A stretch of DNA of 64,000 bases from Bacillota bacterium (GTDB lineage: Bacteria > Bacillota > UBA994 > UBA5500), in the NCBI GenBank assembly GCA_023436245.1, contig JAEZJZ010000078.1, forward strand, positions 79,758 through 143,757. The letters are read 5' to 3'. Positions 1-14,389 of the stretch are shown here, piece after piece (the first letter of the stretch is position 1; each line of letters begins with the position of its first letter). The translations under genes were made by a program, and so were the position numbers. Below the pieces are notes generated by a model that saw nothing but the letters and a program-made list of their open reading frames with translations, had not been told where the DNA came from and made no database searches.

Positions 1-369
1 GCCAAGAGCGCCAGTTATCAGGTGAGGCCACGCGGCAAGACCTATACCGGTGACCTGGTGGTACTCGTCGGCACGAATACCGCGAGCAGCGCAGAAATGC
101 TGGCAGTTGCCCTGAAAGATTCCGGGCGTGCGACGCTCGTTGGGCAGACGACTGCGGGCGGCAGCGGGAACCCACTGCAGTTCGCTATTGCCGGCGGCAT
201 GGTGCGCTTCTCCACCGGTGATTTCCAGCGAAATGATGGAACGCCCATCGAAGGCGCAGGCATCGCCCCGGACATCCTGGTGAACTGGACTGTCGAGGAT
301 GTTGCTGCTGGCCGCGACCCTGACCTGTTGGCGGCGGCGGCCATCCTGCACCAAATGAGCGGCAAATAA
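1..369 (+). CDS. C-terminal processing (S41 family) peptidase, 5'-truncated at window edge
   Basis: ORF 22..369 is open back to position 1. Sequence VVLVGTNTASSAEMLAVALKD...ATLVGQTTAGG is typical of the S41 catalytic C-terminal region. Confidence 0.55.
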   Translation, partial: AKSASYQVRPRGKTYTGDLVVLVGTNTASSAEMLAVALKDSGRATLVGQTTAGGSGNPLQFAIAGGMVRFSTGDFQRNDGTPIEGAGIAPDILVNWTVEDVAAGRDPDLLAAAAILHQMSGK

Positions 370-2240: not shown

Positions 2241-3710
2241 TCACTCGATGCCAAGGATGTCGCCGGCGATGCGAACATCAACGACCTGTCGGTCACGGAT
2301 TACCACCGAGTCAATCAAGCCCCTAATAGCATTCTGAAGAACCGGCAGCTCGCCGTGCTCCCACAGCCAGAGTGCTTGCTTCGCTTCCTTCTGGATGGCG
2401 GCCGATATCTTTTCTACCTGTGGCGCCTGAGCGCGTGCTTTCTCCTCCGCGAGAAGCTGGCGCTCTTTTTCTATGCGCTCCCGGGCCAGGCGCAGGTCGT
2501 TATCCCCGATCAGGCCGTTCTCATAGGCGGCAATCTGCCTCTGGAAGCGCTGGTCTATGGCGGACTCGCGGCGTACGTACTCTGCTTCCTTGCTGGTCAT
2601 CGCCTGGCTCAGATCCTGGTCACTGACTGTTAGAGAGCCGTCGGCCAGTCGTTCCAGCGTCTGATAGACCGCAACCTCAGCGTCCTCATTCTGCACGTAG
2701 TTGAACCAGCAGCCTCCATTGTGGGCGTAGTTCCGGCAGACGAAGATGTCGCGCTGACTGACCTCAGTCTTCTTGTTTCCGTACTTGCGGGCGTTCATGC
2801 CACTTCCGCAATGTCCGCACACCAGCAGTCCACTGACCCTCATCTTCTTGGCCCGGTCCTTTCCTGTAGGCTTCGGCCTCTGCAGCTTCTTCTCGATAGC
2901 CGCCCATTGCTCCTCGGTGTAGATGGCAGGGTGAGCATCGTCACGGACAATCCATTCAGACTCGTCTCGCCACTGCATCTTGCCTTCCTTGTCGTAGTAT
3001 CTCCGGTTGTACACGAGCTGGCCGGCATAGATCTCATTGCAGATCAGACGGCGCACTGATGTATTGTGCCAGATGCCACCGGAGCGTGGCTTGCTTCCGG
3101 ACTCGTTCAGGGTTTTGGTGATTGCCCGGTACCCGTGGCCAGCGATGTACATATCGGCGATCTTTCGGACGAGTTCCGCTTCCTCAGGAACGATGACCAG
3201 TTGCTTGCTATCATCCAGCCGATAGCCAAAGGGTGCAAAGGACTGATATCGTTTCTTCTTGCTGGCCACCTCAAGCATGGTCGAGCGTACCCGCGTGGCA
3301 ATCATGGCGCGTTCAAACTCAGCGAACGCGGCCAAGATCTGCAGGACCATGCGGCCGATCGGCGTGCTTGTATCGAAGTTGAGGGCAGCACAAACGTAGG
3401 CCGTTTTATGCCTTTCGCACAGGTCAATGAACTGCAGCATGTCTAGCAGGTTGCGGGAGAGGCGGTCGACCGCAACGGTGGCCACGACAGCGACCTGACC
3501 TTGCTTGATCAGGCGCATCAGCTTCTGCATCTGAGGCCGATTCATGTCCTTAGCACTTTCACCTTCGTCGGCAAAGACCTGAACGTTCGCCCAACCCTGG
3601 AACTTGGCGTAGGCGCTGAGCTTGTCTATCTGGGCCTCAATCGAATAGCCTTCCCGGGCTTGATCATCAGTGGAGACGCGAACGTATATGGCGCTAACCC
3701 TATTCACCAT
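2241..3710 (-). CDS. int: large serine recombinase (prophage integrase)
   Basis: MVNRVSAIYVRVSTDDQAREGYSIEAQ is a resolvase-type catalytic N-terminus. Recombinase and zinc-ribbon regions follow (CGHCGSGM...CRNYAHNGGC), then a coiled coil. Start refined to ATG at 3710, with GGAGGTG SD 5 nt upstream. Confidence 0.85.
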   Translation of the reverse strand: MVNRVSAIYVRVSTDDQAREGYSIEAQIDKLSAYAKFQGWANVQVFADEGESAKDMNRPQMQKLMRLIKQGQVAVVATVAVDRLSRNLLDMLQFIDLCERHKTAYVCAALNFDTSTPIGRMVLQILAAFAEFERAMIATRVRSTMLEVASKKKRYQSFAPFGYRLDDSKQLVIVPEEAELVRKIADMYIAGHGYRAITKTLNESGSKPRSGGIWHNTSVRRLICNEIYAGQLVYNRRYYDKEGKMQWRDESEWIVRDDAHPAIYTEEQWAAIEKKLQRPKPTGKDRAKKMRVSGLLVCGHCGSGMNARKYGNKKTEVSQRDIFVCRNYAHNGGCWFNYVQNEDAEVAVYQTLERLADGSLTVSDQDLSQAMTSKEAEYVRRESAIDQRFQRQIAAYENGLIGDNDLRLARERIEKERQLLAEEKARAQAPQVEKISAAIQKEAKQALWLWEHGELPVLQNAIRGLIDSVVIRDRQVVDVRIAGDILGIE

Positions 3711-3940
3711 GAGAGCACCTCCGTGGCGAGTCCAATATCGGTTGGGGATGTGGTTGGTTACCGCGGGTACACATGCCAGCAAGAGAGCTCAAGTGGGGCG
3801 GGAGACCTAGGACTCTCTTCTTCTCTTAGCCTCCCTAACATCCTTATGATAAACCCACTCTGAAGGGGCCATGGGCATTTGAAATCAGCGTTTTGCCAAT
3901 AAATGGCCAGCCAATGATCGGCTGGCCATTTCGGATTATC

Positions 3941-4786
3941 TCAATTGAAAACAGACTGGATGAACCCGCTCCATGTCTGGTATGCTGCGACGAGTCCTGT
4001 AGCAGTTGTGATTCCGGAGACTACCGCCTTACCCGCCTTAAGGAGAGTCTCAATCAGGGTCTTTCGAGGCTGCTCTTCATTAAGTTGGCTAATGACCTCT
4101 TTAACGATGCCGGTCAACTCTTCTTGCTTCTCCTTGTCGAGTTCTGACTCCATCGCTCGGTAGAGCTCGTCGGTATACTTCTTAATCTCCTGAACATGCG
4201 AACCGAAGTTCACTACATTATCTGCTCCTACCACAAATTGACTATCCTTTGCCTCGATTTTCATCTGCGAGAAGTCGTTCTTGGCCACGTGGACATCTCC
4301 CTTCACGTTGAATATTACCACGCTGTTTCCAAGGTCCGCGATTTTCGCCATGTTCTCGGGCGAGAATTTTAGATCAGCTAATGGAATCTCAGCGACGGCT
4401 TTTTTTTTTGCCATGCTCAGGATGTAAGGATCCGTGCTCCATAAGGCTGTTCGATACTGAGTGTCAGCGTAAAAAACTGGAAATATCATGTTCGACGTGA
4501 CCTCGTATTCTTCCCCACAAAGATCACACCGAACTGGTGCCAAGGATTCCGGAAGGGTGTCGAGAACCGCCAAAGAACGACTGCAACCGTACTCTGGGCA
4601 GCGAACCTCCCAACGTAGCCTAAGTTGTCTAATTTTCGCCAAATCCAGCAATCGACTGAACACAGGTTCATATGACAGTTCAAGAGTCTTCGAGATGAAT
4701 GTTGGGTAGAACCTCTTCACTGGGAGCTGGAGTAGAGTGCCTACCAATGTGTCAACCCTTGCGTCAATCTCATGTTGTTCGGCCAC
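3941..4786 (-). CDS. hypothetical protein with CxxC...CxxC zinc ribbon (cassette gene B)
   Basis: GTG start at 4786, 9 nt after an AGGAG SD that lies at the stop of the upstream gene. Contains RCPEYGCSRS...CDLCGEEYE. C-terminal half is rich in V-x-G-x-V beta-strand repeats. AT-richer than surroundings. Confidence 0.45.
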   Translation of the reverse strand: MAEQHEIDARVDTLVGTLLQLPVKRFYPTFISKTLELSYEPVFSRLLDLAKIRQLRLRWEVRCPEYGCSRSLAVLDTLPESLAPVRCDLCGEEYEVTSNMIFPVFYADTQYRTALWSTDPYILSMAKKKAVAEIPLADLKFSPENMAKIADLGNSVVIFNVKGDVHVAKNDFSQMKIEAKDSQFVVGADNVVNFGSHVQEIKKYTDELYRAMESELDKEKQEELTGIVKEVISQLNEEQPRKTLIETLLKAGKAVVSGITTATGLVAAYQTWSGFIQSVFN

Positions 4787-4800
4787 GCTCAATCACTCCT

Positions 4801-5889
4801 TCAGGGCAGCAAGCGCTCCCTCACGTATTCTATCACAGACTCAGTAGCGGGAGTCATGAAGAAAACGGAATCGGACTGAAGTCCAACCCTTATCGTATAG
4901 GTATGCGTTACCCGATTGTCGGCATGCTCAAACTGAATGAACCCACCGGTTTGCGACAGGAATGGTCGCAGAGAGTCATAAAGCGGGAGACCCCTAAGGT
5001 CCCTTCCGGATACACCCATGCCCACCTTCTCTAAACCAGCAAGAATCAGTGCCGTGAAACCCAGTGCTACATGCCCCGGACTTAGGTTTTGCATGGCAGC
5101 AGTTAGTTCCCGCCCTAGCAGTTCTATTTCCGGATTCCGAAAATAGGTATCTACGGCGTTCAAAATGTTCAGTACCGCGCTTCTTTGCTCGTCTCCAAAT
5201 TCCTCTAGCAACAACTCAGGTGTACACATAGTATCAATGAGTTCACCGCTCAGGGCGTCGGCGATCCGTGAAGCATCTCTATCATATAGCGCACAAAAGG
5301 GAATCGGATCTACAACGACCGTGTCTCCAACAAGCGCTGTTACCGTACTCGCGATTCGTTCTGCAAACTTAGGTTCGCATCGCGTTTCGATGATTCCTTT
5401 TTGCTCATCAACGTACGCCGTAATTATACTTGTTCGCGGACGTCGCTCCATTTCAGTGCCGTTAAAGACCCTAGACACACCGGTCCTCAGCATGAGTCGT
5501 AAGTAGTACTTTGAATCATCTCCGTTTGTTCCCGCAGTCATTAGGACTGGTGTGGATGTCAGCTCGTTCGCGCTGCAATTACGGATTCGCGCAAACGGGT
5601 CAAACCCCGCATTCTGGGTAATCCTAGCCCTCGCGCCTTCTAGTGAGCAACCGTTTGCGGGTCTAAACCATGCGACAGACGTACGGCCCGCAAGTAGCCT
5701 TTCTCTGCCTGTTCCCAGCACGACATTTCTAAGCACCTGATTGTCCCTTACCTGTTCCCAGATCTCATTGGCCAGATCCGTGACCGAACCAGCGTCCGGG
5801 ATACCCAGGTCCGTGCACATCTGTTGAAGCACTTCCTTAGGAAGTCTCACGACATCGGTGATGAATGACGAGTTTTGGATATTGAGCAT
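4801..5889 (-). CDS. hypothetical protein (cassette gene A), no recognisable domain
   Basis: ATG at 5889 preceded by GGAGG with an 8-nt spacer. 362 aa. Stop lies 14 nt from the gene B start, suggesting an operon. Confidence 0.45.
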   Translation of the reverse strand: MLNIQNSSFITDVVRLPKEVLQQMCTDLGIPDAGSVTDLANEIWEQVRDNQVLRNVVLGTGRERLLAGRTSVAWFRPANGCSLEGARARITQNAGFDPFARIRNCSANELTSTPVLMTAGTNGDDSKYYLRLMLRTGVSRVFNGTEMERRPRTSIITAYVDEQKGIIETRCEPKFAERIASTVTALVGDTVVVDPIPFCALYDRDASRIADALSGELIDTMCTPELLLEEFGDEQRSAVLNILNAVDTYFRNPEIELLGRELTAAMQNLSPGHVALGFTALILAGLEKVGMGVSGRDLRGLPLYDSLRPFLSQTGGFIQFEHADNRVTHTYTIRVGLQSDSVFFMTPATESVIEYVRERLLP

Positions 5890-6109
5890 TTGACAAACCT
5901 CCAATCATCAGCGCATCATGGTCGGCAGTGTATCGCACAAGGACGAGGGCAGCGGTCCAGGTGCGTGGAGCATGCGCATTGTCACATTTCTTCACGCCTC
6001 GGCAGATTCCTCCAAGAATAGGCAAGAAAATGCCTCGTTTTGGCAGGACTCCAGGGATTCCTGGCAGAACGATAAGACCATATGTCAGGATGGCGGGAGG
6101 TGTCAGATA

Positions 6110-7165
6110 GTGAAGCAGGAGTTCGCTACGGTGCTTGAAGGCTATTTGCAGGCCAAACAGGAGGAGTTCACGTCACACACGATGGCTCACCACCTAAGGA
6201 CGGTCTTGCCCGAAGTGCTAATGAGTGAGCTTGACCTGTCTGTGTACACGAGCGATGGGTCGAGTGGAAATGGTCGATGGGTGAAAGTCCCTTGGGTCAG
6301 TGCGTTCCACAAGAGCGTCACCGTCACGGCGCAGAGGGGCTACTATGTCGTCTATCTGTTCGCCGAGGATATGAGCGGTCTGTACATATCACTTAACCAG
6401 GGCTGGACGGATTTCGAAGACAAGTATGGTCGGAGTGAAGGAAGAAAGCAAATCCGCCGATCGGCATTGGCTTTGAGAGCACTCGTAGGGCCGCATCTCA
6501 GACGGCTTGTGGCTGACGAAATCGACTTGGCACGAAAGGGGAGGCTCGCTCTTGGCTATATGGCCGGCCACGTATGCGGAGCCTATTACCCCGCCTCCTG
6601 CATTCCTTCCGAGGAAGAGCTGCGTGCCGACCTTGTCGAGATTCTTTCCCTGTATAATCGGCTAGTGGCAGTGCTCGGAAAAGATTCATGGGTCGAGAAG
6701 GCAGCTCGGCTTGCAGAATCTCAGACCGCAATCGCTGATGACGAACAGGATGAGGGTGACTTCCAGAAGAGGGTTGGACGGAGCCTTCCTACCCAGTCGA
6801 CGCCTGGGCCCAGACCGCGGCAGGAGCCAAAGCATACGAACCGCGGCCCCGTCTGGCCGCGCGACCCCTCAATCGCGCGGGAGGCTTTGATTAGGGCTGA
6901 GTATCGGTGCGAGGTGGATCCCCAGCACATTACCTTTATCTCGGCGGTGACAGGGCAGAACTATGTGGAAGCTCATCACCTGATCCCGATGAGTAGGCAG
7001 GGAGAGTGTGATAACAGCCTTGATGTAGTGGCAAACATCGTGGCGCTGTGTCCGACCTGTCACCGCAAGATTCACTTTGCCGACAAAGACGTATCCAATG
7101 CAATGACATGCGCCCTTGTCGAAGCCAGGCGGAGTAGGCTGGAGGACTACGGAATCCATTCATAA
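6110..7165 (+). CDS. DUF3578 (McrB N-terminal-like) plus HNH endonuclease; putative modification-dependent (type IV-like) restriction enzyme
   Basis: GRWVKVPWVSAFHKSVTVTAQRGYYVVYLFAEDMSGLYISLNQGW matches the DUF3578 core. C-terminal HHLIPMS...CPTCHRKIH is an HNH motif. GTG at 6110 with GGAGG 13 nt upstream. Confidence 0.6.
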   Translation: MKQEFATVLEGYLQAKQEEFTSHTMAHHLRTVLPEVLMSELDLSVYTSDGSSGNGRWVKVPWVSAFHKSVTVTAQRGYYVVYLFAEDMSGLYISLNQGWTDFEDKYGRSEGRKQIRRSALALRALVGPHLRRLVADEIDLARKGRLALGYMAGHVCGAYYPASCIPSEEELRADLVEILSLYNRLVAVLGKDSWVEKAARLAESQTAIADDEQDEGDFQKRVGRSLPTQSTPGPRPRQEPKHTNRGPVWPRDPSIAREALIRAEYRCEVDPQHITFISAVTGQNYVEAHHLIPMSRQGECDNSLDVVANIVALCPTCHRKIHFADKDVSNAMTCALVEARRSRLEDYGIHS

Positions 7166-7285: not shown

Positions 7286-8488
7286 TCAGGCGTAGTGAGC
7301 AACGTGACCAGTATCCCAGTCTATTCGAATAAAGCGAACAGCGACATTAGCGTTTGCTCCTGCATCCACGCGGTGACCGGACGCTCCAAAGTCCCGCAGC
7401 ACTTCTGTGCTGAAGATGCCGGAGTATGCTCTATCCCTACCCATGATTGCGGCGCATCTCAGACCGGCGAGGCAACTGGCAATGGCCATTTCTCCCCCAG
7501 AGTGCGGGCAGTTGGGTTTGAAATGCCCCGTAGCGCTGCCGTGGTGGGACACGCAATAGTAACTGCACCGAGGAAGGTAATGATGGCAATCATGGAACTC
7601 TGCCCATCCTTCGCGCTCAAGATCGCCAGGAAGTATCATCGTCCTGCGTTCTGAGCCAAACATCAGAACCGTAGACGAGTTGTTCACTTGGCTAACTATC
7701 CGATATGGCTGGCAGTACGCAGACGTCTTCGGCGATGTTCTCAGAGTTCGTAGAGAGGGGTGCAGCACAGCGGCAAAAGAACCGCTGTTTCCAGCTATGG
7801 GCTCAACGAACTTAAGATTCTGAGCTCGTGCGGAATTGTACAGGCGCATAAGTATGGTATTATACGACGGCATAGCCCACGAGTAGTGCATATTAGCCCA
7901 TATCTCCGAGTTCTCAAGGTAGCCATTGTCCAGCAAGTACCCGATCCCGTTGAAATGGTCAAAATGTGGGTGCGTCAGGAAGAAGCGAGAAACGGAGAAC
8001 TCACCAAGAGCGAAGTCGGCCATTATCGTCTGAATACATGAGGCAAGGTTATTGCGATAGTGCTGATGATTGAGAAAGTCATATGTGGAACAATCTACCA
8101 TGACAATCTCGAGATCCATACCGGTTTCACGAACTATAATGCTGCAGTTTCCGTGTCCGACATTAACGTGGTACGAACAGACTTGACCGCGGCCCCGAGC
8201 AAAAGGAGACGGGGCTTCAGATCGTGATTCTAGCAGACTTCTGAACTTGTTGTTTAGCATCAGCGCTGCTTTTGCCTCGCCTTCGCCTCCCGCACTCCGA
8301 AACTCTCCATTGGCAAGCCTAACAAAGCTTCCTTCTCGGAGCCCACGAGTGACCTTTGCCTCGAACCCTTCCGAAAACAAGCCTTCTCCCTCAAGTGTGT
8401 ACCCTTGGTTTGATACCCTCTCCAGCTCAACTGATACTCGACCATCAGTCACTGGCTGGACTCCATGAACGAAAAGAACACCCGACAC
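7286..8488 (-). CDS. MBL-fold metallo-hydrolase with N-terminal extension
   Basis: FLTHPHFDHFNG is the HxHxDH metallo-beta-lactamase motif, with downstream His and Cys residues. GTG start, so the N-terminal boundary is uncertain. Confidence 0.55.
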   Translation of the reverse strand: MSGVLFVHGVQPVTDGRVSVELERVSNQGYTLEGEGLFSEGFEAKVTRGLREGSFVRLANGEFRSAGGEGEAKAALMLNNKFRSLLESRSEAPSPFARGRGQVCSYHVNVGHGNCSIIVRETGMDLEIVMVDCSTYDFLNHQHYRNNLASCIQTIMADFALGEFSVSRFFLTHPHFDHFNGIGYLLDNGYLENSEIWANMHYSWAMPSYNTILMRLYNSARAQNLKFVEPIAGNSGSFAAVLHPSLRTLRTSPKTSAYCQPYRIVSQVNNSSTVLMFGSERRTMILPGDLEREGWAEFHDCHHYLPRCSYYCVSHHGSATGHFKPNCPHSGGEMAIASCLAGLRCAAIMGRDRAYSGIFSTEVLRDFGASGHRVDAGANANVAVRFIRIDWDTGHVAHYA

Positions 8489-9442: not shown

Positions 9443-10861
9443 TTGAAGCTGTCGAAACTACTAGCCCTGTTTCTTTGCGTGGCACTATTAGCCGCGCTGC
9501 CGGAGAACGCGGTTGCCCTTAACAACGGAGTCCAGACGGGTTCTGTCCAGAACTCCTACAGCGATCTCCATGTGACGGCGAACAGCACGATTCTAATCGG
9601 AGTTGAGTCGCTTGAGCAAGGTCGCGTTGACTGGAAGGTGCAATTGACGGAAGCCTCCCCTGGGGCGAATCTTGCGGTAGTTGCCCTTCAATCCTCCAGT
9701 GATGAGGCTGTTTCAGTTCAGATGAACGGGACCATCGTCGAACAGGATGTGGGTGAAGGCCACGTTGATAGTGTAGCAGCCGGGTACTTCATGCTCCTTT
9801 TCACCTTGGTGCCTAGTGAGTCCAGCGAGGGCTTCGGTAGTGACTCTTCTGCTGTCTTTGACCTGACGGTTTCGGGTAATATCGAGGAGGATCATGCCTA
9901 TCCGCCTTCGCTCCGCATCATGTCTGACTGCGCATTCCAGACCTATGGCTATCCTAGATCAATTCCACTGAAGGTTGAGACCCAGCCAGGTAACCTTGTG
10001 TACTTCGGAAGGGAACAAGTGCTTGCAGATGCTAATGGTATGGCGGTTCGTCCGGTAATTCTGGGTGGGCTTCTGGAAGAGCGTATAGAAATGAAAGCAT
10101 TGGCTGAGTCGGGTCACGGGATAGTGGCATACGTGACTGTAGTCAACCACTGGGTGACAGAGAATCCAGCTACGCCGGTCTATCTGAGTCGTCGGCCATT
10201 GCTTTTGGTCAATGTGCCGGACACCAGCATCATTGACACTGAAGCATCTGTTGTCGAGATCGATGATCAGCCCGCAGAGCTCTATGTTAGCTCATCGGAT
10301 TCTCTTGCCTTCAGTTACGTAGCTGGCACGCCTAGCACTTCGTTGGACTATGGGAGTCATAATGTTCTGGTTGCGCTCTACTCGAAAGTGGACACACCGG
10401 GACGAGATGACAAGTTGCTCGATGTCGTCTCGTGGGACTTCGAGATTCCCGCCAAGCGTCAAGCGCGGCTCTGGCCCGGAGAGACGGTCTGCATCGTCAA
10501 TGATGAGGAGTTCAATCTTGACGCGGCACCATTCCGTGACCCGGCAACTGGCTCAACCATGCTGCCGTTGCGCTTTGTAGGTGACTTGATGGGAGCCCAG
10601 GTGGCGTGGCAGGGGAGTGACCAGACTGCCGTGTTCACTTTGGGCGAAAAGACGGTTCAGCTGAGCATTGGTAAGAAAACAGCATTGGTCAACGGGAAGC
10701 AGGTTACGTTAGCTGCGCCTCCTGCTAACATTGCCGGAAGAACGATGGTCCCTCTGCGCTTTGTGAGCGAGAGCCTGGGGGCTCAGGTGTCCTGGGACCC
10801 GGCGACCAGCACAATACAGGTTGAGGTTATGCTTGATGAGCCTGAGATGACAGTTGGATAG
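9443..10861 (+). CDS. secreted protein with two C-terminal copper-amine-oxidase N-terminal-like (stalk) domains
   Basis: TTG start after AAGGAGGG. Signal peptide MKLSKLLALFLCVALLAAL. C-terminal repeats RFVGDLMGAQVAWQG...TMVPLRFVSESLGAQVSWD. Confidence 0.5.
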   Translation: MKLSKLLALFLCVALLAALPENAVALNNGVQTGSVQNSYSDLHVTANSTILIGVESLEQGRVDWKVQLTEASPGANLAVVALQSSSDEAVSVQMNGTIVEQDVGEGHVDSVAAGYFMLLFTLVPSESSEGFGSDSSAVFDLTVSGNIEEDHAYPPSLRIMSDCAFQTYGYPRSIPLKVETQPGNLVYFGREQVLADANGMAVRPVILGGLLEERIEMKALAESGHGIVAYVTVVNHWVTENPATPVYLSRRPLLLVNVPDTSIIDTEASVVEIDDQPAELYVSSSDSLAFSYVAGTPSTSLDYGSHNVLVALYSKVDTPGRDDKLLDVVSWDFEIPAKRQARLWPGETVCIVNDEEFNLDAAPFRDPATGSTMLPLRFVGDLMGAQVAWQGSDQTAVFTLGEKTVQLSIGKKTALVNGKQVTLAAPPANIAGRTMVPLRFVSESLGAQVSWDPATSTIQVEVMLDEPEMTVG

Positions 10862-12066: not shown

Positions 12067-12258
12067 TTACGCACTGGGTCCGCCGGATTTGCCCTTGGTA
12101 ATCACCGCAATAGCAATGCTACCAACGGTAACAGCCACACCCAAGGCGGTCTCCCCGACCTTGCGAAGAGTACGCCATTTTTTGTTTTGGCAGTTCTCGC
12201 AGGTGTCTTTGCTGGATTGCGGTATCTCCTTACCGCACTTCTTGCAAAACTTGCTCAT
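12067..12258 (-). CDS. small zinc-ribbon plus TM protein
   Basis: CKKCGK...CENCQ followed by hydrophobic GVAVTVGSIAIAVI. Overlaps the upstream gene stop by 4 nt. Confidence 0.35.
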   Translation of the reverse strand: MSKFCKKCGKEIPQSSKDTCENCQNKKWRTLRKVGETALGVAVTVGSIAIAVITKGKSGGPSA

Positions 12259-13361
12259 TGTTGCTCTCCCTTTCTTACTGGTACGGCATCGAGCAGCGGT
12301 TGCGTCTCTTCGATGTCCAGCGGGAGAGCCGCAATCTTTTGCTGAATGTCCGCGAAATTATCAATCAGGCCCTTTTGGCTTGAACTGCCATACGAATCCA
12401 AGGTCAATAGCGTATCTCGGTCATCAAGCGAATTGGCGCTGATGAAATCGCTGAACTGCTTCATGCTAAGTCTGGCCGCGTTTTGCTCACCGAGCAGACA
12501 GTACACGGTAGTCTCAACTTGCACGGTTTTGGTAATCGCCAATAGGCTGTTGAAGATTTCGGCACTCTTCTCATCGCCGTGGTTCTGTGCCTCCCTATCA
12601 ATCAGCTTGGAGAACCATCCTCTATCCTTCCGCTCCTCAAAAAAACGCTTCTCGCTGGCAAATGCCCTGAAGAGGATGCACTTGGCATCTGTCGCGCTAC
12701 CCAGAATACTGAGCAGTTTCTCCTCCCGAACTCTGCCATCGCTTATCTGTGCGGCTTGTTGTAGCTGTTGCCACGCGCTTTCGGCCAGAGCGAGCCTATC
12801 GTCTTGAAGTTCGCTATGTAGGTTGGCGATGCCCCTTTGTACATCGTGGATTTCGCTTATCACCTGAGCTAACGCAATCTGTGTTTGCAGATCCGTAATC
12901 GAATGTCCCAAGTCAGGCGTTAATTCTATATCCCTTAGCCGCACCTGAGCGACAACGCCTTTCTCCCCATAGACGGATGGCAGTATTTCGCCGCTCTTGT
13001 CTGTAATGAATCTGTAGACACCCGAATCAATCAGCCTCTGTATGGCCGGGTTTGTCTCCGCGACCTTTATCGTCTCCGGCAACGCTGATTTTACAGCTTC
13101 AAAGAAGGCAGGGGCAACTCTGGATAGGTTTTCGGCTCTGCTGAAGATAATGCTCAGGTTGTTGCTCTGTATCGTACTGATAGGGAACACTTGGTCAAAT
13201 CCGGCGGTCAGCGACGTGCTTTCCCATTGAAACTTTGCCAACGGCTTTTTACACGCGACCATCGGTAAGTTTTTGCTGCTACTCCTGTATCCGCAAAACG
13301 GGCAAACCGAAGCCTTGTCCGATACCTTGGTCCCGCACTCCGGGCAATATACCAATGACAC
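12255..13361 (-). CDS. zinc-ribbon-domain hypothetical protein
   Basis: N-terminal CPECGTK...CPFCG. 368 aa with no other recognisable domain. Sits directly downstream of cI on the same strand. Confidence 0.45.
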   Translation of the reverse strand: MSLVYCPECGTKVSDKASVCPFCGYRSSSKNLPMVACKKPLAKFQWESTSLTAGFDQVFPISTIQSNNLSIIFSRAENLSRVAPAFFEAVKSALPETIKVAETNPAIQRLIDSGVYRFITDKSGEILPSVYGEKGVVAQVRLRDIELTPDLGHSITDLQTQIALAQVISEIHDVQRGIANLHSELQDDRLALAESAWQQLQQAAQISDGRVREEKLLSILGSATDAKCILFRAFASEKRFFEERKDRGWFSKLIDREAQNHGDEKSAEIFNSLLAITKTVQVETTVYCLLGEQNAARLSMKQFSDFISANSLDDRDTLLTLDSYGSSSQKGLIDNFADIQQKIAALPLDIEETQPLLDAVPVRKGEQQ

Positions 13362-13535: not shown

Positions 13536-14330
13536 CTACTCCATTCTGGACATGCCTTTGCTTACCTTCGCAAACATCCTGATCATGTGCCCAACCTCGC
13601 CGCCATCCAGACCAAACTGGGTGGCGATTTCTATTGTCTCCGCCCATGCCTGGTCTGTCGCGGTCTTACTCGTCAGCAACGCCTTGTACTCCTGATATGG
13701 CGGCGCGTCTTTCAGCACGCCGACCAGGTGACCGATGATGCGATGTTTTCCGGTGACAGGCATGTCCGCATACTCAGGGTTTGCCGCGCGGAGAACAGCC
13801 AGTCCATTCTCACGGATGAAGTACTTGAGGGTGGCAGCCCAAGTGTCATCCTCGACGCCGGCTGCAACGACCATTCCGCTCTGGGCTTCCGTAGCTTGGC
13901 GGAGAACGGCGGTGTCCCCCTCGTGGATCCCGGCCCAGCTCATGCTATCGCCTGAGACGTGCAGTGCGAAGTCTGCGCGCCAGTCTGACGGGATCTCGAC
14001 TTCGCCCTCGAAGTTCTCCTCGGCCAGGACAGGGATGCCGGCTTTGATGGTACCGATGAGGGGAACCACCCGCGGTTGCCCAAGAGCTTGAGAGCTTCGG
14101 GGTAGATTGAGTATCTGAGAAATAGGCCTAGGTTCGTCAGTAGAACCAACGAGATAGTCCATGGTCACCCCGAAGTACTCGGCAAGCTTCTGAAGTGTCT
14201 TGACATCAGGTTGTCGACGACCAGACTCATACGCCGTATACGCAGGTCTGGTGATTCCCAGATGACTCGATAGATCATCTTGAGTTTTCCCTGCCTGTTT
14301 TCTGAGGTAGGACAGTCTACTAGCCAGCAT
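13536..14330 (-). CDS. cI: CI-like phage repressor (XRE HTH plus S24 LexA-like peptidase) with about 60 aa C-terminal extension
   Basis: N-terminal HTH (LASRLSYLRKQAGKTQDDLSSHLGITRPAYTAYESG). GDSM motif present (VSGDSMSWAGIHEGD), and KHRIIG consistent with the catalytic Lys. ATG at 14330 with GGGGGTGG SD. Confidence 0.8.
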   Translation of the reverse strand: MLASRLSYLRKQAGKTQDDLSSHLGITRPAYTAYESGRRQPDVKTLQKLAEYFGVTMDYLVGSTDEPRPISQILNLPRSSQALGQPRVVPLIGTIKAGIPVLAEENFEGEVEIPSDWRADFALHVSGDSMSWAGIHEGDTAVLRQATEAQSGMVVAAGVEDDTWAATLKYFIRENGLAVLRAANPEYADMPVTGKHRIIGHLVGVLKDAPPYQEYKALLTSKTATDQAWAETIEIATQFGLDGGEVGHMIRMFAKVSKGMSRME

Positions 14331-14389
14331 CTCGAGCCACCCCCTTCGCATGACTAACTAATTTTTACTGTAGCTGATTGTTACACAAA

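Follow-up and report, generated by a model that had tools for sequence, protein, structure and literature searches.

What is a tightly coupled pair of genes doing between the integrase and the repressor of a prophage in a Bacillota genome? The pair, here called genes A and B, lies at positions 3,941 to 5,889 of a 64,000-nucleotide stretch of contig JAEZJZ010000078.1 (assembly GCA_023436245.1). We refer to this whole stretch as the window and number all positions from its first letter; it is part of a 281-kb metagenomic scaffold, ENA ERZ28596075. A sequence-only reading of the window had proposed that the two genes form an undescribed two-component anti-phage or abortive-infection system. In the comparative analysis presented here, the A-B cassette is an autonomous accessory ("moron") operon of Bacillota temperate phages, and gene B contains a feature that the earlier reading had overlooked: a conserved poly-A run, which probably gives rise to short and long isoforms of protein B by programmed slippage.

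Gene models and expression signals of the A-B cassette

The cassette and its candidate expression signals comprise the following features.

4801-5889, minus strand: gene A, 362 aa, ATG start at 5889
5902-5898, minus strand: Shine-Dalgarno (SD) sequence of gene A, GGAGG, with an 8-nt spacer to the ATG at 5889
3941-4786, minus strand: gene B, 281 aa, GTG start at 4786, a fused form of two modules (B-N and B-C)
4796-4803, minus strand: A/B coupling junction, at which the TGA of A (4803-4801) abuts the SD of B, AGGAG (4800-4796)
3908-3928, minus strand: terminator-like hairpin, GGCCAGCC...GGCTGGCC followed by TTTATT, 13 nt past the B stop codon
6077-6106, minus strand: weak sigma-70-like promoter candidate upstream of A, CTGACA-18-TATGGT, 9/12 matches, a consensus match only

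Both gene models of the sequence-only reading, two coupled minus-strand genes of 362 and 281 aa, were borne out. The start codons of the gene A homologues all fall in one and the same alignment column. In gene B, a 9-nt spacer separates AGGAG (4800-4796) from the GTG at 4786, and the 281-aa model that begins there is the better one because the TTG listed at 4792 is just 3 nt from the SD. The earlier reading had also placed the SD of the downstream gene at the stop codon of the upstream gene, and AGGAG does directly abut the TGA of A. The terminator-like hairpin would close the A-B transcription unit ahead of the integrase gene, and the last gene of most related loci has a comparable hairpin 3' of it. 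As the same reading had noticed, the cassette is richer in AT than the phage backbone: its GC content is 49.9%, compared with 56.2% for the window, which places it in the lowest 1% of same-size windows.

The A-B pair is co-conserved in Bacillota prophages

Homologues of A fall into 42 clusters at 28 to 48% identity, all of them from Bacillota. Their sources are Moorella/Neomoorella, Carboxydothermus, Paenibacillus, Alicyclobacillus, Aneurinibacillus, Priestia and Bacillaceae, together with Staphylococcaceae, Sporomusa, Pelotomaculum, Desulfoscipio, Lentibacillus and Oceanobacillus. In every locus fetched via A, tblastn showed a B homologue directly after A, approximately 15 to 45 nt past the stop codon of A, and the co-conserved pair on which the earlier proposal turned is thus real. 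Relatives of B were gathered by tblastn on these A-fetched loci and by an exhaustive phmmer search, and contigs were scanned with a profile built from a 16-sequence alignment; a k-mer-based homologue search with B alone returned only B itself. The phmmer search yielded a B family of 143 cluster representatives, which includes short (B-N only), fused and stand-alone B-C forms. A stand-alone B-C protein that was looked up independently also turned out to lie inside an A / B-N / B-C operon.

Identity among the relatives is lower for B (21 to 41%) than for A. A fused B of 235 to 293 aa is present in about a quarter of the loci, and the others have a short B-N open reading frame (ORF) of 123 to 153 aa followed by a B-C ORF. 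One locus, L033 (loci are cited by such handles where they need to be told apart), gave a match to the N-terminal module only, and conservation of the C-terminal module does not extend to it.

All related loci are in Bacillota prophages or a phage-plasmid, and the cassette occupies three positions among them. It stands right after the holin/endolysin genes at the prophage end (Neomoorella, A. fastidiosus, a Desulfoscipio metagenome-assembled genome, an Aneurinibacillus plasmid, S. pseudintermedius and Carboxydothermus), immediately before the terminase genes (in P. taichungensis and in several IMG/VR prophages), or, in the window, between int and cI. We also considered a role as recombination directionality factor for the adjoining serine integrase; this was rejected, as elsewhere the cassette is rarely beside an integrase. 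No match was obtained when 50,697 records of sequenced phages were searched by tblastn with the A of the window and with its homologue from Staphylococcus, and a tblastn search of plasmids found a single phage-plasmid, from Aneurinibacillus.

That element (L021; Aneurinibacillus thermoaerophilus plasmid CP080765, 69 kb) carries tail and lysis genes and an Alp7A-type actin-like partition protein, and is therefore a phage-plasmid. An Abi_2 gene lies 2 kb from its cassette, and Abi_2 and a LexA-like repressor are found within 3 kb downstream.

A second group of loci, from Staphylococcus pseudintermedius and relatives (L015/L016 and L022/L023), has an intact A and a permanently fused B of 265 aa, with A6-A8 runs at the junction. 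Here the cassette comes directly after a CHAP/amidase endolysin gene, at the prophage end. The identical Staphylococcaceae B occurs in 28 blocks of the assembly collection and is carried by the 24 contigs that were read. This lineage would be convenient and genetically tractable for tests of function.

Protein B consists of two modules joined by a lysine-rich linker

The cassette works as three modules, namely A, B-N and B-C. The two B modules and the sequence between them are laid out as follows.

Residues 1-118, nt 4433-4786, minus strand: B-N module, predicted winged helix-turn-helix with a zinc ribbon in the wing and a conserved FYPT motif
4400-4409, minus strand: A10 homopolymer (T10 on the plus strand) at the B-N/B-C junction, codons A126-K-K-K-A130, the proposed slippage site
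Residues 130-192, nt 4211-4399, minus strand: linker and short beta/pentapeptide-like stretch, lysine-rich and then, at approximately 150-190, pentapeptide-like
Residues 193-281, nt 3944-4210, minus strand: B-C module, predicted four-helix bundle with a conserved AY(E/Q)xW...F tail at its end

The predicted model of B (pLDDT 85) comprises the winged helix and zinc ribbon, the linker and the four-helix bundle. The sequence-only reading had described a CxxC...CxxC zinc ribbon followed by a V/G-rich beta-repeat C-terminal half. A zinc ribbon is indeed present, but its pattern is C63-x4-C68 ... C87-x2-C90; C63, C68 and C87 are invariant in the relatives, and the fourth position is without an aligned Cys in some of them, with a His nearby. 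Of the beta-repeat half, what remains is the short pentapeptide-like stretch at approximately 150-190 (pLDDT is low at residues 155-190), while residues 195-280 form a confidently predicted four-helix bundle (helices 195-215, 218-235, 242-257 and 263-280; pLDDT >93). No transmembrane segment was detected in B, whose maximum Kyte-Doolittle 19-residue score is 1.16, and none of the B homologues has a segment of transmembrane grade (maximum score ≤1.57). On hydropathy, a membrane-effector role of B, RexB-like or tail-anchored, was ruled out.

A conserved A-run marks the junction of the two B modules

When the split locus L004 was aligned with L009, a close relative in which B is fused, a run of A residues became apparent exactly at the junction between B-N and B-C. 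In the window, the run at 4400-4409 is the sole A/T run of at least 9 nt within the entire 64 kb. An A9-A12 run is found in 22 related loci, 111 to 125 codons into B, and in 18 of the 22 the reading frame changes at the run: B-C follows in the -1 frame in 17 loci and in the +1 frame in 1, and it is in frame in the remaining 4 (the window, A. fastidiosus, L009 and the Aneurinibacillus plasmid). Past the run, one frame alone is open, for 149 to 182 codons, and this is the frame that encodes B-C; the remaining two frames close after 1 to 53 codons, and after no more than 26 codons except in three loci. In each of the 17 split loci, the -1 frame stays open as far back as the run, and in L004 the -1-frame peptide encoded ahead of the first possible start codon shows homology to the linker that is in frame in the fused L009.

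Runs of this length are rare: the related loci, 328 kb in total, contain 22 A/T runs of at least 9 nt, and 17 of these are at the B-N/B-C junction. Of the Lys codons in these loci, 58% are AAA, so that approximately 20% of KKK motifs would be expected to be encoded as A9; given this expectation, Lys-codon bias was rejected as insufficient to be the sole cause of the run. The runs also begin in all three codon phases. In a small sample, run length was identical between two A. fastidiosus assemblies and within the near-identical pairs L001/L029, L002/L034, L020/L031, L011/L012 and L007/L025. Not every related locus has the run. The Staphylococcaceae lineage, with its fused B, has A7 + A7 and no run of at least 9 nt. 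The decayed copies are likewise distinct: in L017/L018 (IMG/VR 2814123203), A is frameshifted into two frames and B-C is broken into pieces of 235 and 53 aa, with A8 + A7, and in L038 (Oceanobacillus sp. J11TS1), only residues 209-357 of A are left, with A7.

Runs of 9 A or T residues support efficient RNA polymerase slippage in bacteria, and in Thermus thermophilus dnaX a homopolymer run with stop codons near in both other frames gives two products (PMC5009743). The loci described here combine two features of programmed-slippage genes, a conserved slippery sequence at the frame junction and a two-frame architecture with a consistent shift direction. Our inference is that a short B-N and a long B-N~B-C protein are both produced at every locus, the unshifted product having switched between the two in the course of evolution. 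In the window, the long form is in frame, and slippage would produce a short form, as in the Thermus dnaX arrangement: one extra A leads to KKK-SRR-stop (-1 frame, 3 codons) and one fewer to KKK-PSLRFH-stop (+1 frame, 7 codons), with predicted off-frame products of approximately 132 to 135 aa. In most relatives, the short form is in frame, and the fusion would need a -1 shift. No stimulatory RNA structure was found at the run when folding was compared with that of shuffled sequences (mean z of +0.01 for the 50 nt downstream and +0.13 for the 45 nt upstream), and the absence of a conserved flanking hairpin favors transcriptional slippage. Efficient -1 frameshifting by the ribosome needs such a structure; for slippage by RNA polymerase, a long run is sufficient (PMC5009743). 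The mechanism is most likely RNA polymerase slippage, perhaps with some contribution from -1 ribosomal slippage on A_AAA_AAA.

A third product of gene B is possible. In the window, an SD-like AAGGGAG (4302-4296) is followed after 7 nt by a GTG (4288-4286), just ahead of a conserved x-K-x-D-F-S motif. An SD-like sequence and start codon stand at the equivalent place in 12 split loci (L004, L006, L008, L010, L011, L013, L014, L024, L026, L032, L035 and L036). These internal sites consist of GGAGG or AAGGGAG, 7 to 8 nt before an in-frame ATG, GTG or TTG, ahead of the motif (M/V)-x-K-x-D-F-(S/G)-G. An internal start of this kind could yield an independently initiated, stand-alone B-C of approximately 110 aa, or the SD-like sequence could merely reflect conserved Gly-Gly codons.

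Protein A is predicted to combine a SAP domain with an RdgC-like core

The sequence-only reading recognized no domain in either protein. This holds at the level of sequence, where neither A nor B has a significant Pfam or NCBIfam match and where, in scans of Pfam, NCBIfam, PHROGs and PADLOC, the sole library match of A was PHROG 38742, whose function is unassigned. It does not hold for predicted structure, in which the winged helix-turn-helix, zinc ribbon and bundle of B are visible, as are two parts of A.

Residues 1-65, nt 5695-5889, minus strand: predicted SAP-type helix-extended-helix DNA-binding domain of A
Residues ~66-362, minus strand: predicted RdgC-like core of A, with a three-helix "tip" insertion at ~233-284

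The AlphaFold model of A, built from 42 sequences, is confident (pLDDT 88.6, pTM 0.81). Fold matches of residues 1-65 are SAP domains (PIAS1, FAN1, DEK and Hcc-1) and the Rho N-terminal domain. The core consists of two beta-sheet domains with the three-helix insertion (233-284) between strands, and its best structural match is RdgC, with 209 residues aligned. In a Foldseek search of BFVD, A matched phage proteins named "recombination-associated protein RdgC" with a probability of 1.0. RdgC is built of base, centre and tip domains (PMC11077077); the predicted domain order of A fits this layout, its modeled fold agrees with the three-dimensional RdgC fold, and we read the helical insertion at ~233-284 as the likely counterpart of the RdgC tip domain. 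At the sequence level, A did not match the Pfam RdgC family (PF04381) even at an E value of ≤1, and a profile of A run against PDB sequences gave nothing meaningful, with RdgC not among the matches. By hydropathy, A is soluble. From the model, A appears to be a cytoplasmic DNA-binding protein made up of a SAP domain and an RdgC-like core.

In the RdgC of Escherichia coli, this fold makes up a ring-shaped dimer closed around DNA. The RdgC/Iml3/Chl4 fold is also that of the lambda prophage exclusion protein RexA, which binds DNA nonspecifically, as do its actinophage homologues (PMC11077077). In the literature, RexA was the only defense protein with an RdgC fold that we found.

Evidence for and against a role in phage exclusion

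What, then, does the operon do for the prophage? We tentatively favor, at a little less than even weight, the reading that the A-B operon keeps out superinfecting phages much as Rex does, though with no membrane channel. A defense reading is favored because of the moron behavior of the cassette, its low GC content, the fast divergence of B, the PDC-M14B module in B and the type IV nuclease next to it. The B-C module matches PADLOC PDC-M14B with an E value of 1e-8 over profile positions 174-264 of 267, and PDC-M14B matches were obtained for 24 of 50 B family members (best E value, 6e-13). PDC-M14 is a candidate system embedded in BREX, DISARM and type I restriction-modification (RM) loci (bioRxiv 10.1101/2024.01.29.577857); in the literature on it, we found nothing beyond its family identifiers.

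Under the exclusion reading, the operon would be expressed from the lysogen as a Rex-like module that lacks a membrane partner. A would load onto the DNA of the superinfecting phage, for example at ends or at replication or recombination intermediates, and B would bind A, nucleic acid or both via B-N. The B-C bundle might then oligomerize or deliver a block to phage DNA replication, recombination or packaging, and the short B isoform may be a competitor that sets the threshold. In its most specific form, the proposal is of prophage immunity in which a SAP-bearing RdgC-type clamp senses phage DNA and acts with a nonenzymatic, nonmembrane partner whose active long and antagonist short isoforms are made in a set ratio by poly-A slippage; this full version is doubtful, if possible.

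Several observations weigh against exclusion. In A and B, no nuclease, NTPase, protease, TIR/SIR2, pore or transmembrane element was detected, and hence no executioner is visible. Profile-profile comparison of A by hhalign gave a probability of 0.2 with E. coli RdgC and of 0.09 with lambda RexA, and the top fold matches of A did not include RexA. Both proteins are acidic, with an isoelectric point of about 5. Many split loci have an internal SD and start codon able to make B-C on its own. The PDC-M14B match of B is confined to approximately 90 C-terminal positions, no PADLOC model, PDC-M14A included, matched A or 41 of its homologues, and PDC-M14 is itself only a candidate system, defined by embedding. 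Finally, the neighbors of the cassette in 11 IMG/VR loci are endolysins, holins, terminases, integrases and structural genes, with no enrichment of defense genes.

Among the 104 neighboring ORFs of those 11 loci, Amidase_2, TerL, TerS, holin and integrase are the Pfam families that occur most often, and the PADLOC matches listed are a phage C5-methyltransferase and one SspD-like protein only. The defense-island setting described by the sequence-only reading is therefore not general, the neighbors being ordinary phage genes. Its larger claim, of an undescribed anti-phage or abortive-infection system, remains a hypothesis: the context in the window and the PDC-M14B module speak for it, whereas no toxic, enzymatic or membrane effector is detectable. 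In the literature, we found no description of the A-B family or of the recoding site in B, and a search on transcriptional slippage in anti-phage or prophage settings turned up no recoding-dependent anti-phage system.

Alternative explanations for the cassette and its A-run

Other functions can be imagined for such a pair. The cassette might serve the phage's own DNA transactions or bias the choice between lysis and lysogeny, with A modulating host RecA/AddAB or protecting DNA ends or intermediates and B as its DNA-binding regulator. There are precedents in RdgC, which inhibits RecA strand exchange and LexA cleavage, and in RexA, which biases the lambda switch independently of RexB (PMC11077077). 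Proteins named RdgC, with the same fold, are encoded by lytic phages, several loci have the cassette at the end of the early region, co-oriented and before the terminase genes, and no toxic effector was detected. Yet the cassette is distributed patchily and sits in varying, moron-like places, either past the lysis genes or in the int-cI interval; its GC content is low, it carries its own terminator, and tblastn with A found nothing in the 50,697 phage records. In addition, a candidate system found embedded in BREX/DISARM/RM loci contains the B-C module too. We regard a role in the phage's own DNA metabolism as unlikely on balance, though still a serious contender. Far less probable is a toxin-antitoxin (TA) or abortive-infection pair, in which one protein would be a toxin that arrests growth (A, for example, by clamping host DNA) and the other would neutralize it, with release controlled by the ratio of the B isoforms. 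The tight two-gene unit on mobile elements and the winged helix of B-N, a fold found in many antitoxin DNA-binding domains, would suit such a pair, and one B homologue has a weak AbiTi match (E value, 0.002); however, neither a known toxin fold nor a known toxin family is present, the sizes and architecture are unlike those of type II TA pairs, and the Abi_2 and AbiTi signals are weak or in neighboring genes only.

The A-run, too, can be explained in other ways than by programmed slippage. Homopolymer tracts of 9 to 12 nt are classical sites of phase variation, and the run might be a DNA-level switch at which slipped-strand mispairing toggles B-C in lysogens, with no recoding. Tract length does vary among loci (A9, A10, A11 and A12), all three frame relations occur, and the split L004 (A10) and the fused L009 (A11) are close relatives. 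That pair, however, also differs by a 2-nt indel outside the tract, and tract length is constant in repeat assemblies and near-identical loci. An identical 281-aa protein of the window is found in NCBI, Logan and ENA, and the same -1 shift is needed in 17 of 18 out-of-frame loci, for which random switching would have given a mixture. Phase variation is accordingly quite an improbable account. It is hardly credible, in turn, that the split relatives are pseudogenes or products of homopolymer sequencing errors and that the run is simply an AAA-encoded Lys-Lys-Lys linker. Homopolymers are error-prone in some sequencing chemistries, AAA is the prevalent Lys codon (58%), and there is no specific avoidance of A9 as the coding sequence for KKK. 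But A9 or longer occurs in 22 of approximately 27 nonidentical loci, in all three codon phases, against the roughly 20% of KKK motifs expected as A9; the shift is -1 in 17 of the 18 split loci, and the -1 frame stays open for 149 to 182 codons and encodes a conserved module. The loci come from many independent isolates and assemblers, and the copies that are truly decayed (L017/L018 and L038) look different, all being without an A run of at least 9 nt.

Genes surrounding the cassette in the window

The interval from the integrase to the cI-like repressor holds, besides the A-B cassette, the following genes.

2241-3782: large serine recombinase (integrase), which adjoins the cassette
5918-7165, plus strand: MrcB_N(DUF3578)+HNH protein, a type IV-like nuclease (PADLOC mREase_IV, E value 9e-10)
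7286-8488, minus strand: MBL-fold protein, 400 aa, with an N-terminal extension of ~110 aa
8663-9250, minus strand: DUF5105-like lipoprotein, in the int-cI accessory region
9443-10861, plus strand: 472-aa protein with a signal-peptide-like N terminus and a Cu_amine_oxidN1 domain, in the int-cI accessory region
12255-13361, minus strand: 368-aa protein with weak zinc-ribbon matches, directly downstream of the cI-like repressor on the same strand
13536-14351: cI-like S24/HTH repressor, which faces a Cro-like gene

Pfam and PADLOC matches support the context given for the cassette in the sequence-only reading, an int-cI interval with DUF3578-HNH and MBL-fold neighbors. The integrase is flanked on its left by host genes (DUF503, methyltransferase and S41 peptidase). 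As called, the ORF of the MrcB_N+HNH protein starts 28 nt from the divergent start codon of A. The MrcB_N domain begins only at residue 72, and the true start may therefore be further downstream, which would leave a divergent promoter region of approximately 200 bp before gene A. The MBL-fold protein has weak matches only (Lactamase_B, E value 4e-4; PADLOC PDC-M48B/LmuA, E value ~4e-4; NCBIfam "anti-phage 6A-MBL," E value 0.014), and it might pair with the adjoining HNH nuclease. Surface lipoproteins in the int-cI position of Firmicutes prophages are often superinfection-exclusion factors of the Ltp/Sie type. The slot just downstream of the cI repressor is the position of rexA/rexB in lambda.

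Comparison with known systems

If the cassette does exclude phages, the RdgC/RexA fold would extend beyond the Rex systems of lambda-like phages and actinobacteriophages into Bacillota, with a wholly different, soluble partner, and this would bear on the old question of what RexA-type proteins sense. Independently of function, productive transcriptional slippage has a clean candidate site in the A9-A12 run, and the occurrence of in-frame and -1 layouts in a single family is a natural parallel to the alternative dnaX solutions. For annotation, B is called as two or three hypothetical genes in most genomes, with inconsistent starts.

The Rex systems, lambda RexA/RexB and the Rex-like pairs of the actinobacteriophages Sbash, CarolAnn and Butters, resemble A-B in that each is a two-gene operon that a temperate phage carries within or close to its immunity/integration region. 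In lambda the first protein, RexA, has the RdgC/Iml3/Chl4 fold, which the predicted RdgC-like core of A may share, and the sensor has no enzymatic domain. In contrast, RexB is a polytopic membrane protein, while B is predicted to be a soluble combination of winged helix-turn-helix, zinc ribbon and helical bundle with no transmembrane segment, and Rex has no recoding site. Membership in Rex was rejected, as there is no RexB-type partner and no detectable sequence homology to RexA. RdgC (PF04381), the best structural match of the core of A, differs in lacking the N-terminal SAP domain and the constant coupling to B; it is a proteobacterial chromosomal gene, whereas A is found in Bacillota prophages. 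Assignment of A to the Pfam family of RdgC was rejected at the sequence level. PDC-M14 is like the cassette in that the last ~90 positions of PDC-M14B match B-C, with B-N unmatched; classification as PDC-M14 was likewise rejected, as the cassette has no PDC-M14A and shares only the C-terminal third of PDC-M14B.

For the expression of B, T. thermophilus dnaX (tau/gamma) is the counterpart of the window: both have a run of at least 9 nt at a domain boundary, a long product encoded in one ORF and stop codons close by in the other frames. Most of the relatives are instead laid out like orfA-orfB of insertion sequence (IS) elements, with an orfA and an overlapping orfB in the -1 frame. Other cases of slippage include Shigella spa13/mxiE and these IS-element orfA-orfB pairs. 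Unlike dnaX, B belongs to an unrelated family and is part of a prophage accessory operon in which in-frame and -1 layouts coexist, and slippage in it is predicted from the sequence. By analogy, the A side of the cassette would work most like Rex, and the expression of B would be most like the recoding of dnaX and IS elements.

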